Positions 1 to 6,733 of a stretch of DNA of 64,000 nt are shown here, one piece after another; positions within the stretch are counted from its first letter, which is position 1; each line of letters begins with the position of its first letter. This DNA comes from Candidatus Obscuribacterales bacterium (GTDB taxonomy: Bacteria; Cyanobacteriota; Vampirovibrionia; Obscuribacterales; Obscuribacteraceae). Below the pieces are notes generated by a model. It was not told the origin of the DNA. It made no database searches and saw only the letters and a program-made list of their open reading frames with translations. The position numbers were made by a program, and so were the translations under genes. The stretch lies in assembly GCA_965228855.1 (NCBI GenBank), contig CBDDIJ010000003.1:2848001-2912000 (forward strand), written 5' to 3'.

Positions 1-3000
1 GCAGATCTCATTGCTGCCGAGTCAAGTCTGAGAGTAATCGACAGAAGGATAGAAGAACTCGCGAGACAGGGTGAGGCACCACCTCTGGAGCTACTGCGCC
101 AGAGACAGCAGATGGAATCCTATAGAGAGCGCATGCTCCAACAGGTCGAAAGGAACCGACTAGACCGTCCGGACCATGCCTTCTTCTACGATAAACTTCA
201 ACAGTTTATAGAACAGACCTATGAGAGCCGCGATCAAGCTTCTCCGGCTCGCCGTGGAGATAGCGAGACTCTGCGAGAAGATGGTAAGCATAGGTTCCGA
301 GAAAGAGGAGCTGAAGAGCAAGTTCGTCCGATAGAGGGCGATCTTGAAGCAAGAGAAAGAGAAAAGCAGATTGTCGAAGATGACGATGATGGTGGCATTT
401 CTTCGAACTACTCGAGATTCGCGGCCGTAGATGTCGAGGGAAATCCTGCGACGATTATCGATAGAACCGATGATGGCAAATTCATCGTAAACCGTCCGAA
501 GCACGATGGAGACCCTTCACCTACCGGCTTCGAACCGCCTCGAGATCTATACTCAAATCTGCGCTACCGTGAGCTGAAAGTTGCGGAATTAGATGGAACC
601 CTGTCTAAAGCTCGCTACTTCCGTGACACTGCCAGTGGTGAGTTCTTCAAGGTGGAGCAAGTTTATGGAGAGCAATACCTCCGGTTTCCGGCAGATGAGA
701 TCGCAATAGTAGAAGCTAACAGTCTGCGACCGAGACTGGTTTCTGAATCAGTACGAATAAACACCAATCGCCTCAGAATGATTGAGGACATAGCAGACCA
801 GGTTCCATTTCTACCAGAATTACCAAGACCTCGAATCGAAGAGCTGAGCGCAAGATTGCAACAGCAGGAGTCAGAGGTCGTTCAGACAAGAGGTCTGAAG
901 CCTGAATTTTCGGGCTTCAGCTACGATGAAATGATCTCGGCATTCGAGAAATCTGGAATTACGAGCTATAGCGACTTCCTGAAAATGGGACTTTCCGATG
1001 AGGTCCCAGAAGCGATGAGCGTCTACACACTCAAGGGTCGCGAAGACTTGAAGATTTACGTATCTGAGTCTTTGAGTGCAGTACATGACAAAATTCGAGA
1101 GCTACGCGCAATCCAAGAGTCAGGCTCACCTGATGATAGCCTGAAAGCAAAATTCCTGCTCAAGCAACCGGAGTACAGGCGTCACGTTCTACCTGAAGAT
1201 CTCATCGCCGACTTCGCTACGTTGCCGGACGGAGGAGCCTCAATCAAGAAGCTTGTCATCTCCGGACAGCCCGACCCCGATAATGCCTGGTTGACCTACC
1301 AGCACAGAGACAAACAGGATCACTTCTTCGTGGCGCGAGCATCAGCCAACATCGACAGTGGAACGATCACGTTCTACGAAGGTTCCGGCGGCAGTCGCAA
1401 ACCGGTTGCCGATACATTGAGACATGAATGGGCCCACGTTCTCGAAGGCCAATCGCCCGAACAACGCAGAGCTCTGGACGCCGCTCTCCGGATAGAAGAG
1501 GAAAACGGCACTCCCTACAAGATGCGGGCGTATGCCAAGTACACCGAGAGTGAAGATTGGGCCGTGCATGTAGGCGAAGTAATGCTGGCCCAGGATTCCG
1601 ACCCATTCTTCGACATGGTCGCAAGCGCACATGGCACGGATTCGCGATACAAACTGCTGCTTATGGCGAATGCCATCGAAGAGTCTATGACTCAAGCCAA
1701 TCTCAAGGGCTTCGAGATGCACGGCGCAGAAGAGATGAAATCCAGACTCAAGTATCTGCGCGATCAGCTTGAACCGGGGGCGAAAGAGCGGCTCTTGGAG
1801 ATTCTTAAGGAGTCAAAGACTACACACATGTCGGCGAGCGATGCCGGCAATCTTCTGCGCGCACTCGCGAAAGAGGGTGATCTGGAAACATTGAAAGCGG
1901 CAGTCTTCGATGTAAAGACTGAAAATGGTCTGACCTCCATTTTCGACGCGATAACAGACATTACCGGGGAGAAAATACCGGAAGAAATACTCGGTCGGAT
2001 GATCGAGAATCGCAGTCCAGCGATGACGGGTGCTCTCCGAAGGATTCTTCTATCAGACGATTACCCACAACTCAAACCATCTGTGCTCGAAGAATTCTAT
2101 AACGGTGCAATACCGCGGGCGGTGGCAGAAGCGAATTCTCCTGGAGCGGACTACATTTTCCACAACTTCATCCTCGACCAGGAAAAACAAGGAAAGGGGA
2201 TAGAAGCGTTGAGAGCCGTGGCAAACGGTCTGGAAGGTCACCCTGAAATGCGTGGAGAGTTCCTTGCAGCCATCGTCTTCGATGAAACCGATGCCCTGGC
2301 AAAAGCAGCGCTGAATATACTCGAGGAATTGCCACCGCTTATTTCGTCCGAGCCACATGTAAGGATCACTCTGGAATCCGAATACCACGAATTCGCGAAA
2401 GACCCTGAAGCTCAAGCTCAGATGCGCAGAATTCTAGATAGAATCGAAGCACTACCCGAATTCAAATCGCGTCAGACCGAGGGAGACTCACCGACGAAAT
2501 CTTCGGATCTCGCAATGCGAGGAGACGATGACTCCGCGGAGCGGCTGCGCCCCGTCGAAGGCGACAAGGTAAAGTGGACACCGACCGAACGAGCACAAGA
2601 TACTGCTCGCTGGGCTAAACAATTCGTCGATAGATTCAATAGCGGAGACTATCAAGAGGCGTATCGGTATCTGCTCGACCATGATGCATATCCATCTACC
2701 ATTGAGGTCAGACTCAAAGACTTCCAGATAAAAGCATCCGAACTGCTTGCGGTATCTACGGACGGTCAATTCAGCGAATCGCTCAGGGATTTCATGCGTG
2801 AAAGTGGACAAGCCGCGAGCTTCAGACCTCAGGGATTCATCAGAGACCACAAAGCCTGGGACTGGGATACCTACTTCATCGATAACCCCAGGACGGTGGT
2901 TGAGCTGAGCAGTGGCACGAAGATTGACTTGATGCATCCTGACACTACTCTCGATGCCAAGCCGCTTACCAGTGAGGCGGACCGAATAGAAATCAGAACA

Positions 3001-5271
3001 ATTCTCGAAAGCCCTGCAGCGAAAGAGTTGATGGCGCGACACGCGGTCATTCTCGCCGAAGAAATGGCCCACGTCCGTCAGACTGACAACAATTTGTTCG
3101 TAGTGTCCGAGACCTATTCCCGGATGATGGAAGCCGCGTCAGACCCAGAAAACGCTCTGCGGCTCGAGGTCTTCGACATGCCGGTAAACCGAGATAACTG
3201 GGGCTACAGAGACTTTTTCTCCTTCGAAGAGGAGATTCCCGCCATCTTCGCTGATGCTGGCATGTCGATAGAGCACCTCCGCAAGTACTACAGCAATTAC
3301 GATCACAGAGGACCGCTGCTCGACTTTATCGAACAAACACAAAAATCACAAAGGGATGGTTCTGGTTCTAACGATCTCGCTATGAGGGGTGATCGACCGG
3401 AAGCAAATGATCCGACGAATCGCCGATCCAAACTGACCGAAGAAGATGCTTCCAGAATCAATGACGAAGTCGTATCTGCCCTGATATATGAGCGACAGGC
3501 TGTTGAACAAGACATGTGGGATGAGCTCTACAAAGCTCGCGGCAACAAGCTATCGCCCAAAATGGAGCGAGGAAGACAACAGGCTATAGAGCTATTAGGA
3601 CCTGTTGTGGAAGAGACCGCGAGGAAGTTGGGTCTGCCACCGGATTTGGTGACACCAGACATGCTGACTATATCGCTAAGGGATGATCATACCGGCACCT
3701 TCGGAACCGACGGAAAAATAGAAGTAAGCATCTTCGCCAATGATCCAGTTTTCGTGATCGAGCATGAACTCAGACATTTCAAAGAAGCTCTCGCGCGAAC
3801 TGCTCTGAAGGAATCGAACCCTGAGCTGTTCACGCAAATAATCCAGGAGCAAGTCATCGACGCAGTCGGCAACGGCGGTCGGCGAGCCATAGGAGAAGAC
3901 GCAAGACCCAGACCCCAGATCGCAGATCCAGAAGCGCGGCAGACGATGAAGGACCTGGTGCGCGCAGTCCTCTCTGACAACTCTCTAAAAGGAGCTCGAG
4001 ACATACAGCGGTGGCTTAAAGGCCGCGATATTCCCGACGCCCTGATCAAGGAATTAGGCTCGATGAGGACGATCGCGACAGAGTTGGAACTCGAGAAAAC
4101 TCACTTTAGCAGAGCTATGGAAGAAGCCACTCTTGAGATGGAATCAGACTCGCTCAGCGACAAAACCAGGGCATATATCGATAGACTGGCAGCAGAGACA
4201 CAACCACACTCTAAGGAGTACGCCAGACACCTTCTCAAAGGCGTAGCAGCAGACGCAGCGGGAATACTAAACGATACCGGACACTACAGAATGTCCAGAG
4301 AGGAGATTAGAGCCCGACGCTTCGAGATCTCACGAGACTTATCTCGGAAGCTGGATGAAACGATTGGAAACGATGATGCAGGGCTTTTAGCCGCACTCAA
4401 GTTAGAAGGTTTGCAAGAAAGATTGCTCGACCAGTTGGAAAGGGCGGATGCAGGAGGCGACAATGCACCTGAAGCGCAAGAGAGAGCGCGGGAGTTAGCT
4501 GTCGAACTGCTTGGTAGTCTTCCCGTAGATGTCGATGGTAAGCGTCTCAGCAAGGACGCGATCATAGAGATGCTTGACAAAGGGCGTCTCTCCGAAGCGG
4601 ATTTCGTTGGAGAGGTCCCACTGTCAGGAGTAGTCAGCGTTCCAACTACGAGCGTAGATACGCTCAAGTTCATTCTAGATAGAGGTCTCATAGACTTCAG
4701 CGAACTCGATGGTACTTTATTCGAAAGTATAACCCCGATGCTCAAGAAGGAGCGTCGAGAAATTATGCAGACCGAGCTGGAGCAGCGAAACTGGCGCACA
4801 AAAGTAGACGCATCTGCCGAGACGGAAGCGGCAATTCTCGACGGAAAAATAGACCCTGCCCTCACCGGCGGTGGCGTTCCGCAACCTGATGGCTCGACGA
4901 AATATGCACTAGCGCAGAGCGCAGAAATACTGATCGCTACAGATCAGGTGGCGACAGTCAAATCTGTTTCACTCAAGGATGGAGAGTGGCGGTTCGACAC
5001 TGAGACACCAGACGGTCGCAAATTGAGTGAGCCAGTAGCAGATGTTGCCTACCCATTCCAGCATATTCTCGAGCGGATCGGTCCCAGCGATCCCAAGGCA
5101 GTTGCAGACATCCTGGCATTTCATGCCGCTACCCTTGAAAAACTGAGCGAAAAGAACATTCCGGCACTCGGAATAGAATCCGATGGAACAGGCAAACTAC
5201 GATTCAGGGACCGCGCTTCGAGAGACTCAGCCGCAGAGACAGCGCCAGAACCAACACCTGCAAGAAGCTGA
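1..5271 (+). CDS. Giant multi-module protein with three zincin-like metallopeptidase motifs (polyvalent/effector-like); 5' end lies outside the window
   Basis: Frame is open from base 1 (no stop before ATG 112). Motifs HEWAH (1423-1437), EEMAH (3058-3072), HELRH (3763-3777); linker DLAMRGD at 2506-2526 and 3373-3393. Confidence 0.8.
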   Translation, partial: ADLIAAESSLRVIDRRIEELARQGEAPPLELLRQRQQMESYRERMLQQVERNRLDRPDHAFFYDKLQQFIEQTYESRDQASPARRGDSETLREDGKHRFRERGAEEQVRPIEGDLEAREREKQIVEDDDDGGISSNYSRFAAVDVEGNPATIIDRTDDGKFIVNRPKHDGDPSPTGFEPPRDLYSNLRYRELKVAELDGTLSKARYFRDTASGEFFKVEQVYGEQYLRFPADEIAIVEANSLRPRLVSESVRINTNRLRMIEDIADQVPFLPELPRPRIEELSARLQQQESEVVQTRGLKPEFSGFSYDEMISAFEKSGITSYSDFLKMGLSDEVPEAMSVYTLKGREDLKIYVSESLSAVHDKIRELRAIQESGSPDDSLKAKFLLKQPEYRRHVLPEDLIADFATLPDGGASIKKLVISGQPDPDNAWLTYQHRDKQDHFFVARASANIDSGTITFYEGSGGSRKPVADTLRHEWAHVLEGQSPEQRRALDAALRIEEENGTPYKMRAYAKYTESEDWAVHVGEVMLAQDSDPFFDMVASAHGTDSRYKLLLMANAIEESMTQANLKGFEMHGAEEMKSRLKYLRDQLEPGAKERLLEILKESKTTHMSASDAGNLLRALAKEGDLETLKAAVFDVKTENGLTSIFDAITDITGEKIPEEILGRMIENRSPAMTGALRRILLSDDYPQLKPSVLEEFYNGAIPRAVAEANSPGADYIFHNFILDQEKQGKGIEALRAVANGLEGHPEMRGEFLAAIVFDETDALAKAALNILEELPPLISSEPHVRITLESEYHEFAKDPEAQAQMRRILDRIEALPEFKSRQTEGDSPTKSSDLAMRGDDDSAERLRPVEGDKVKWTPTERAQDTARWAKQFVDRFNSGDYQEAYRYLLDHDAYPSTIEVRLKDFQIKASELLAVSTDGQFSESLRDFMRESGQAASFRPQGFIRDHKAWDWDTYFIDNPRTVVELSSGTKIDLMHPDTTLDAKPLTSEADRIEIRTILESPAAKELMARHAVILAEEMAHVRQTDNNLFVVSETYSRMMEAASDPENALRLEVFDMPVNRDNWGYRDFFSFEEEIPAIFADAGMSIEHLRKYYSNYDHRGPLLDFIEQTQKSQRDGSGSNDLAMRGDRPEANDPTNRRSKLTEEDASRINDEVVSALIYERQAVEQDMWDELYKARGNKLSPKMERGRQQAIELLGPVVEETARKLGLPPDLVTPDMLTISLRDDHTGTFGTDGKIEVSIFANDPVFVIEHELRHFKEALARTALKESNPELFTQIIQEQVIDAVGNGGRRAIGEDARPRPQIADPEARQTMKDLVRAVLSDNSLKGARDIQRWLKGRDIPDALIKELGSMRTIATELELEKTHFSRAMEEATLEMESDSLSDKTRAYIDRLAAETQPHSKEYARHLLKGVAADAAGILNDTGHYRMSREEIRARRFEISRDLSRKLDETIGNDDAGLLAALKLEGLQERLLDQLERADAGGDNAPEAQERARELAVELLGSLPVDVDGKRLSKDAIIEMLDKGRLSEADFVGEVPLSGVVSVPTTSVDTLKFILDRGLIDFSELDGTLFESITPMLKKERREIMQTELEQRNWRTKVDASAETEAAILDGKIDPALTGGGVPQPDGSTKYALAQSAEILIATDQVATVKSVSLKDGEWRFDTETPDGRKLSEPVADVAYPFQHILERIGPSDPKAVADILAFHAATLEKLSEKNIPALGIESDGTGKLRFRDRASRDSAAETAPEPTPARS

Positions 5272-5560
5272 GACGTGGCATAGAAAGGGAATGCACAGTG
5301 GTATGGGTTGACACGCCTTTCAGATACAACCAGGGAAGCAGATCTTCAATGCTTTTTGTTCGTCTCAAATATGGCGGACGTTTAGTCGAAGTGAACCGCA
5401 CCTTTGCTCCACTCGTCCGTCTATCTGCCACTCTTGGTGCTTTAACCGTGATGTCGCCAATTCCAGTTTGTATAGTTCGCTCATGCGATTGCCTTGTACG
5501 CGGACGGTTAGCGCCGAGCTGCGCATCGAGGGCGCCTACGCGACGAACACATCGAAATAA

Positions 5561-6733
5561 TTATTTCAGGTCGTCGCTCAGAGCCAATCGCACGCCGCGC
5601 TTCTCAAGCGCCATTTTGAGTGCCGGCAAACAGTTGCGCGCCGCCTGTTTTCCAGCTTCCAGTGCTTTGATGGAATCGGAAGGTTTTGTCGATAACAAAC
5701 CAATTCCTTCCACTTTTGGATGAATAACCATGTCGGCGTCACGCATCGCGGCATGGTCCTTATTAGCCAGCTCCAGCGTTATGATGCGGCTAGCGACACT
5801 TCCGACTTTCAAAAACTCTTCGATCGGTTGTTCGGTAAATCGTTCGTCGATATTAACTGCGATAATAAAATTGGCACCAAGGATGGTGCGCGCTTCTTTC
5901 ACCGGCAGATTGCAAATGACACCACCGTCGACGAACAAAGCATCGTCCATTCGTACAGGACGTTTCAAAACTGGTACAGCGGAACTGGCTTGCATAGCCA
6001 AAGCCAAGTCGCCCTTTGTGAACGCGTAAGGACTTCCGTTCACCAGGTTTAGTGCCACCGCGCAATACGGAATTTGCAAGTCTTCAATGTTTCTACGATC
6101 TTCGGGTAGCTGTTTGGTGATAAAGCGCTTGAATCTGGTGCTTTTCTCGAGTCCATCAAACCGTTTTATTCCGAGTGCTCTTGGGACAAATTTTACTGGG
6201 GCGATTGCCACCTTGATGGGGATCGGAAGACCGACGAAAGCTTTCAGTACTTTATTTTTTCGCATTATGTCTTCGAGTGTATCGAGTGGCACGCCTGATG
6301 CATATAGCCCGCCCACAATCGAGCCGATACTGGTTCCCGCAATGCAGTCAATCGGGATGCCCGCTTCAGTCAGGACTCGGATGACGCCCACATGAGCTGC
6401 GCCTCTGGTTCCGCCTCCTCCCAAAACTAACCCAACACGCGGCGTGCTCGGTCTGCTGCGCCTTTCGAGGGAAGCCTGATCGAGGAAATCCCCTAAACTG
6501 TCCTTATAGATTTGTCCGGGCAAGCTGATTCCCCCAGGCATCACGAGAGAAACGTCTGTCTCCGCAGCGCATGCATCAGCACTAGCGGCGAAAGCGTACG
6601 CCAACAGTAAAGTCAAAGCTGAGTGTCGCTTCGAGAACAGTTTGTGATTAATTTGCAATTTAAGCGCCTGGAAGGGTTGCCGTGTTCGTCGAAGCAGTTG
6701 AGACTCCGACTCCTTCAGGGTAGCAGATGTCAA
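5561..6733 (-). CDS. Patatin-like phospholipase (RssA/NTE family)
   Basis: GGGGTRG oxyanion loop, GTSIG nucleophile, DGG catalytic Asp; the true start may be downstream of 6733. Confidence 0.92.
   Translation of the reverse strand: MTSATLKESESQLLRRTRQPFQALKLQINHKLFSKRHSALTLLLAYAFAASADACAAETDVSLVMPGGISLPGQIYKDSLGDFLDQASLERRSRPSTPRVGLVLGGGGTRGAAHVGVIRVLTEAGIPIDCIAGTSIGSIVGGLYASGVPLDTLEDIMRKNKVLKAFVGLPIPIKVAIAPVKFVPRALGIKRFDGLEKSTRFKRFITKQLPEDRRNIEDLQIPYCAVALNLVNGSPYAFTKGDLALAMQASSAVPVLKRPVRMDDALFVDGGVICNLPVKEARTILGANFIIAVNIDERFTEQPIEEFLKVGSVASRIITLELANKDHAAMRDADMVIHPKVEGIGLLSTKPSDSIKALEAGKQAARNCLPALKMALEKRGVRLALSDDLK

Follow-up and report, generated by a model that had tools for sequence, protein, structure and literature searches.

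In the MARTX toxins a cysteine protease domain cuts the chain after leucine residues (PMC2780291, PMC5218395). The polyvalent proteins carry one to five zincin domains, which Iyer et al. (2017, PMC5512222) tie by profile searches to the lethal factor peptidase (PDB 4dv8) and for which they propose a role in dividing the protein into units. For giant genes of Omnitrophota, a preprint states that the cleavage points were unknown and that this blocked analysis (West-Roberts et al. 2023, bioRxiv 10.1101/2023.11.21.568195). Whether bacterial giant proteins operate as one working chain or as cut pieces is an open question. Here a window of 64,000 nucleotides from Candidatus Obscuribacterales bacterium (family Obscuribacteraceae; contig CBDDIJ010000003.1, positions 2,848,001 to 2,912,000) was analysed, the first 5,271 nucleotides of which hold the end of a giant gene whose modules are joined by linkers with a short recurring motif. 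The motif recurs between the modules of other giant proteins, where it may serve as a protease recognition site. A literature search that left supplements aside found no paper on the motif or on giant proteins of the Obscuribacteraceae lineage.

Window positions 1 to 5,271 (+ strand) encode the last 1,756 codons (P0001) of an open frame of 8,543 codons (G000:C3:2827640-2853268, where G000 is the Obscuribacteraceae source genome and other G-numbers are compared genomes). The frame is open from window base 1 and extends a further 20,361 bases upstream in the genome. Residues of the giant are numbered g and those of the window part p, with p = g - 6787, which places the window start at giant residue 6788. 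Among the 80 open frames of at least 1,500 codons in G000 the giant is the second longest and the sole one with three HExxH motifs; the window protein has exactly two. No Pfam family was obtained for P0001 at E values up to 1 and no NCBIfam family at all, while searches with the whole giant gave nothing beyond noise in Pfam, PHROGs and NCBIfam and no sequence match in the PDB. With respect to the Rhs/YD-repeat polymorphic toxins, in which a C-terminal toxin follows a YD-repeat shell, a match to RHS_repeat at giant residues 2346-2375 was sub-threshold (E 0.028; score 15.3 bits, cut-off 22) and is followed by approximately 5,500 residues.

The preliminary description had placed three polar linkers in the window part, and the positions it assigned to these linkers and to HEWAH, ESEDWA, EEMAH, HELRH and EEIRAR were all exact. 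Linker 1 spans 250..342, with RRGD at 250-261 and RPIEGD at 325-342, linker 2 spans 2503..2565, with SDLAMRGD at 2503-2526 and RPVEGD at 2548-2565, and linker 3, NDLAMRGDRPEAND, spans 3370..3411, all on the + strand. A search upstream for further copies, which had been suggested as a check, revealed one more, DLAMRDE, which begins at g6331 and lies 1.4 kb before the window start. Between the two DLAMRGD copies four of seven codons are different, and the Leu and Arg codons of DLAMRDE differ again from both. Within the G000 genome DLAMRGD occurs only in the giant frame, and none of 60 other family genomes contains it exactly; the shorter DLAMR was found 16 times in 16,436,090 six-frame residues of G000, with three of the 16 in the giant frame. 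In a wider form the DLAMR core recurs in other giants. RP[IV]EGD occurs three times in G000 (twice in the giant frame) and was rejected as a general linker motif, the only related case being NPVKGD before module B in G002. Linker 1 has only RGD and RP[IV]EGD in common with linker 2. It is the weakest of the three, because it lacks DLAM and its conservation is limited to the G007 orthologue (97% identity); it is absent before module A in G001, G002, G005, G006 and L027. The G007 orthologue retains all sites, which carries little weight at such identity.

Seen against other giants, DLAMR(G/D)(D/E) is a local variant, with Arg in place of Trp, of the broader motif S-G-[DE]-[LFM]-A-M-W-x-[RK], which sits between the modules of proteins of 5,000 to 18,000 residues in three genera of non-photosynthetic cyanobacterial relatives. 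Thirty-one sites of [DENQ][LFM]AM[WR] were counted in giant frames (14 in G042, five each in G100 and G066, three in G000 and two each in G005 and G006), with VLAMR (G042 6027) and SLAMR (G100 11780) falling outside the pattern and excluded from the count. Positions that the pattern does not impose were also conserved, with Gly at -1 in 23/31 sites, Arg or Lys at +6 in 17/31 and Ser at -2 in 11/31. The 18,420-codon frame of G042 contains 14 [LFM]AMW sites against 0.33 AMW expected, together with GDMLMW and GDFGMW, and the 13,497-codon frame of G100 contains five AMW sites against 0.23 expected. The sites of G066 lie in large frames on three contigs, and the giants of G005 and G006, which belong to the same genus as G000, carry [DE]LAMW[RS]R in linkers rich in Pro, Thr and Ser. 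Arg replaces Trp at all three sites in G000 and G007, Trp is present at 28/28 sites elsewhere, and all five G100 sites have Phe at +1. An integrin-type role for RGD was considered and rejected, Gly being simply frequent after Trp or Arg (9/31 sites).

Codons were varied across the 12 strict sites of the G042 frame. Because they vary both among these sites and among the three G000 copies, selection appears to have acted on the protein, and the motif is judged to be conserved at protein level, as had been claimed from the two DLAMRGD copies. A scan of 104 family genomes for G-[DE]-[LFMIV]-A-M-W gave 25 matches compared with 11 control matches; 20 of the 25 were in giant frames of G042, G066, G006 and G100 and the other five lay outside frames of at least 300 codons. 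The pattern [DE][LF]AMWR gave 12 matches compared with 10 control matches, three of the 12 being in giant frames, and loci L022-L041 contained no [DE]LAM.

The placement of the motif was examined through homology between genomes and through predicted structures. Homology blocks between genomes, counted with 25 residues on both sides, span 8/31 sites, where random placement within those regions predicts 17.9. This contrast was drawn from eight giant frames or fragments, and the low-complexity filter and kinship may inflate it. In the window the linkers separate module A (400..2493, p134-831, modelled from p ~119), module B (2566..3360, p856-1120) and module C (3421..4620, p1141-1540), all on the + strand. 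The AlphaFold model of p119-855, built from a 35-row alignment, gave a mean pLDDT of 90.6 and a pTM of 0.83, with pLDDT below 50 only at p119-133 and at p832-855, the latter segment containing linker 2. The model of p856-1540 (24 rows) gave a mean pLDDT of 76.9 and a pTM of 0.54, and linker 3 lies inside p1122-1145, where pLDDT is below 50, as it also is in two loops inside module B and in short stretches of the tail. The alignment used for this second model omitted the rows of 7/30 relatives, comprising four B rows (L074-L077) and three stray C rows (L030:7859-8770, L029:2282-3562 and L068); joint A+B+C and B+C alignments misassigned the rows of modules B and C and were not folded. Linkers 2 and 3 lie in low-pLDDT segments at module borders; the preliminary description had supposed such borders for all three linkers, of which linker 1 is the weakest case. 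Each of the three modules is also found by itself in further large proteins from the genus and family, and the module order is shuffled among giants, by which comparison the window protein is made up of separable modules in series.

A common plan is shared by the giants of G000, G042 and G100: after a long N-terminal part comes a hydrophobic segment, then HExxHxxQD approximately 690-700 residues later, and then the first motif site a further 1,140-1,282 residues on. All further sites lie downstream, in a variable C-terminal array. In G000 the hydrophobic segment, rich in Ala, Gly and Met, is at giant residues 4503-4560 and HExxHxxQD is at 5191; the latter was present in 9/9 giants examined. 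The distribution of sites indicates that the motif belongs with the C-terminal arrays found in some of the giants and not with any one module. The largest relative, the 18,420-codon frame of G042:C1 (L103-L106), holds, between the motif sites of its C-terminal half, 12 FHA stretches, a PRTase-CE match and weak SprT-like and methyltransferase matches.

Upstream of the window, at g6030-6320 (G000:C3:2845727-2846689, +), lies a domain in which a Cys (ANCxNC), a His (HTF) and an Asp (LD) are conserved, in this sequence along the chain. The Cys is invariant in 8/8 sequences and the His and Asp are kept in all seven rows that reach them. This Cys-His-Asp domain occurs in giants of at least four genera and had no match in Pfam, in the PDB by profile search or in Protein Atlas. 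The first motif site directly follows it in G000, in G100 (KDFAMWAKD) and in G042 (GQMAMWSRS), while GEMQSW follows it in G063 and no motif follows the G066:C6 copy. A predicted complex of the domain with a 43-residue linker 2 peptide gave a score of 0.00, which was taken as no verdict either way. HExxGH is the site of DPP III-like enzymes, and the HELVGH module at giant residue 6735 was considered as such a site; it was rejected, as its His residues are replaced in G100 and G042 (MREIVGR and MRELVGR).

We tentatively favour, with a confidence slightly short of even, the reading that window positions 1 to 5,271 are the end of an 8,543-codon gene in which independent modules of the C-terminal part are joined by motif linkers, and that the motif is a protease recognition site at which the chain is cut into modules. 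A single reader would recognise all the sites of one protein, in view of flavours that are uniform across the sites of a lineage and particular to it, such as Arg for Trp in G000 and G007 or Phe at +1 in G100. This reader would be a peptidase, the candidates being the HExxHxxQD zincin within the chain and the Cys-His-Asp domain located immediately before the first site. A peptidase was ranked first because several peptidase-like domains are present in the chains, zincins have been proposed to cut polyvalent proteins, and MARTX modules are released at Leu sites. The released modules would then act as separate effectors. A broader form of this proposal, which is possible but meets with more doubt than confidence, is that the chromosomes of Obscuribacteraceae encode polyproteins of 8,000 to 18,000 residues that process themselves, with a membrane-associated delivery core and up to approximately 15 effector modules, each of which would be released at G-[DE]-[LFM]-A-M-W by a peptidase within the chain, the recognition code co-evolving with the peptidase in each lineage (Trp to Arg here).

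Several observations weigh against cleavage at the motif. No cleavage product has been seen. Among the giants examined the motif does not coincide strictly with any candidate protease: the HExxHxxQD zincin also occurs where the motif was not found, in the giants of G001, G002, G063 and G066:C6, and the Cys-His-Asp domain was not found in motif-bearing G005 and G006 (both 92% complete, with giants cut by contig ends), so that its role as an obligatory protease was set aside. The motif is patchy, occurring in giant frames of 3/37 sampled genera, and has no copy in the 150 top-ranking representative proteins with module A (178,666 residues). The compared sequences are kin, so the counts overstate independence, and low pLDDT is no proof of disorder in the linkers. 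Chance repetition is also less remote when no motif is specified: some 7-mer occurred twice in 148/1000 residue shuffles of the giant and some 5-mer three times in 227/1000. A repeated 7-mer that contains the tripled 5-mer was obtained in 29/4000 shuffles, which makes the pattern only moderately unlikely within G000 alone. The motif was judged not to be due to chance because of its recurrence in other genomes and not from the counts within G000. DLAMR is found at only 13 other places in the 16.4 million six-frame residues, and there are 28 further sites outside G000 with extra conserved flanks; the explanation that the repeat is an accident of a very long and compositionally biased protein is refuted by this recurrence and retains a negligible probability.

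If the motif is read by some partner, the linkers need not be cut. A chaperone, a secretion adaptor, one of the giant's own domains such as the HEAT/ARM tails, or the neighbouring gene products P0003 and P0004 could grip them as docking sites for export competence or for arrangement of the modules. An exposed Met-Trp pair in a polar linker would suit a pocket-binding peptide, the HEAT/ARM domain that ends module A adjoins linker 2, and a lineage-wide change of Trp to Arg is compatible with any single reader, whether or not it cuts. P0003 and P0004 (L003:14181-15413, - strand) are two genes of approximately 200 codons, divergent from the giant, whose relatives occupy the equivalent position next to the giants in G042, G100 and G063, and they may be partners of the giant. 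This pair is, however, also found beside the motif-free giant of G063, and HEAT tails were not found next to most sites; we consider docking unlikely, though worth keeping in view. The motif could instead mark the junctions of cassettes with no reader at all, retained by descent and by recombination that swaps modules. VENN-type motifs, which mark the variable ends of polymorphic toxins, offer an analogy. Such a mark would fit the different module orders among giants, the position of the sites at the ends of homology blocks, and the slot before the first site, which in G005 holds an unrelated domain, unlike that of G000. The codons differ between sites, however, which leaves no identity at the DNA level to guide recombination, only 6-8 residues are conserved at the sites with unrelated flanks, and uniform lineage flavours at all sites are hard to obtain with no common constraint. 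A junction mark with no reader is considered unlikely, slightly more so than docking.

Module A was predicted as a confident fold, with a β-rich N-terminal part, a zincin core (1021..1704, p341-568, +) and a helical-repeat tail (1762..2487, p588-829, +). HEWAH (1423-1437) lies on helix 351-366 of the model, after strands 329-332 and 337-340, and its H357, E358 and H361 are invariant in 35 sequences. The candidate third ligand, E400 (p518, 1552-1554), which is contained in ESEDWA (1546-1563, +), is likewise invariant in the 35 sequences and lies on the later helix 398-410. When the core was compared with known structures, the catalytic domain of anthrax lethal factor (1yqy_A) ranked first, with a Z score of 9.8 and an rmsd of 3.6 Å over 166 aligned residues (model 223-450), followed by PPEP-3 (9g0j_A, Z 7.2), the lethal factor centre (2l0r, Z 6.7) and a Bacteroides metallopeptidase (4l7a_B, Z 6.6). 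Foldseek alone with the module A model returned nothing at E values up to 0.001. The tail (model 470-711) matched HEAT/ARM repeat proteins, with alphaRep and HEAT chains at a best E of 2.2e-10. By fold, module A is a lethal-factor-type zincin with a HEAT/ARM tail, and a putative peptidase.

At E up to 0.001 the module A family comprises 897 representative proteins, and at the stricter limit of 1e-30 it comprises 280; most have approximately 1,000 residues, and HExxH was present in 148/150 of the best representatives. No relatives were found in viral contigs. In G002:C93 (L012, L025) module A extends over two open frames, of 9,257 and 1,078 codons, which are separated by 10 bases and do not share a reading frame; this reflects either a frameshift or two genes. 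Stand-alone relatives were observed in G000 for module A (G000:C2:869643-872876, 1,078 codons, HEFGH) and for module B (G000:C2:889764-891665, 634 codons). Both begin with a Gly/Ala-rich hydrophobic region of approximately 300 residues, which hints at a shared delivery or membrane part.

The preliminary description had assigned one zincin-type module to each linker, and this was borne out to different degrees. It agreed best with module A, whereas module B contains no HExxH and the case of module C rests on its HExxH and a weak profile match. In module B, EEMAH (3058-3072) had been read as a degenerate HExxH; the family instead keeps EExx(x)H..Q in 6/7 members and has HExxH in 0/7, so this assignment was abandoned. 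A second family motif, E(E/Q)E(V/I)P..DAGM, begins at 3226. The module B profile matched neither A nor C, and the Protein Atlas leads for it, all at or below 0.90, were phage hypotheticals, LPD23 (0.88) and Peptidase_M26_C (0.87). In module C, HELRH (3763-3777) lies on a helix after three short strands; both His residues of the HExxH are invariant and the Glu is nearly invariant in 26 sequences, and a distal Y.FS.EE..AR motif includes EEIRAR (4300-4317). Alignment of modules C and A with hhalign gave a weak match over the strands and the HExxH helix (probability 37%, E 3.6e-4). Foldseek searches of the PDB and BFVD with the B+C model gave nothing at E up to 0.001, the matches being to the helical tail (599-685) or to lethal factor chains at E 0.5-1.4 only.

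The remainder of the window protein is a C-terminal tail (4621..5271, p1541-1756, +) with no relative among the loci examined. Upstream of the window, giant residues ~1700-3000 form a β-rich repeat region that includes the RHS_repeat match, and internal helical repeats of approximately 60-70 residues occur at giant residues 3612-3976. A tyrosine recombinase gene (Phage_integrase and Arm-DNA-bind_3; L003:12027-13055, G000:C3:2824026-2825054) lies 2.6 kb upstream of the giant start, adjoined by a Uma2-family gene, and no tRNA was found either in 16 kb of upstream sequence or over the window's first 20 kb. P0004 is weakly similar to arylformamidase (E 1.7e-6, far below the cut-off). Just downstream of the giant lies a patatin-like phospholipase gene (5561-6733, - strand, E 2e-31), which overlaps a 141-codon + strand frame (5298-5723) with no family match.

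For bacterial giants in general, the motif would make processing testable: it is short and strictly placed, giving exact residues for proteome searches and mutation, and it supplies a rule by which giants can be cut in silico into foldable units. Three uncharacterised families were defined from a little-known cyanobacteria-related lineage, namely the lethal-factor-like zincin with a HEAT tail, the EExxH family and the Cys-His-Asp domain. The module A core resembles anthrax lethal factor and the Pro-Pro endopeptidases (MEROPS M34) in its predicted fold and in having HExxH with a Glu approximately 40 residues later, and differs in lacking a Pfam peptidase match and in carrying a β-rich N-terminal part and a HEAT/ARM tail. 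The giants of Omnitrophota are likewise multi-module bacterial proteins with suspected cleavage, from a different phylum and with different modules. The polyvalent proteins also combine many unrelated domains and zincins in one chain, and the best structural match of module A is again lethal factor. The giant differs from them in that Pfam finds neither LPD nor any other domain of polyvalent proteins, viral contigs yielded no module A, and the chromosomal contigs of several genera preserve the locus together with its neighbours; the accessible text of PMC5512222 names no linker motif. The MARTX toxins differ in that Pfam finds no RTX repeats or Peptidase_C80 in the giant, the giants have a longer motif with Met-Trp at its end, their host is an environmental member of the Obscuribacteraceae, and cleavage in the giants is only proposed. 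The resemblance to MARTX lies in a very long chain that combines a conserved part for delivery with effector modules in a variable array, which the toxins release at short linker sites, and in the Leu cut site there, which is paralleled by the Leu/Phe/Met-Ala pair at the motif core of these giants.

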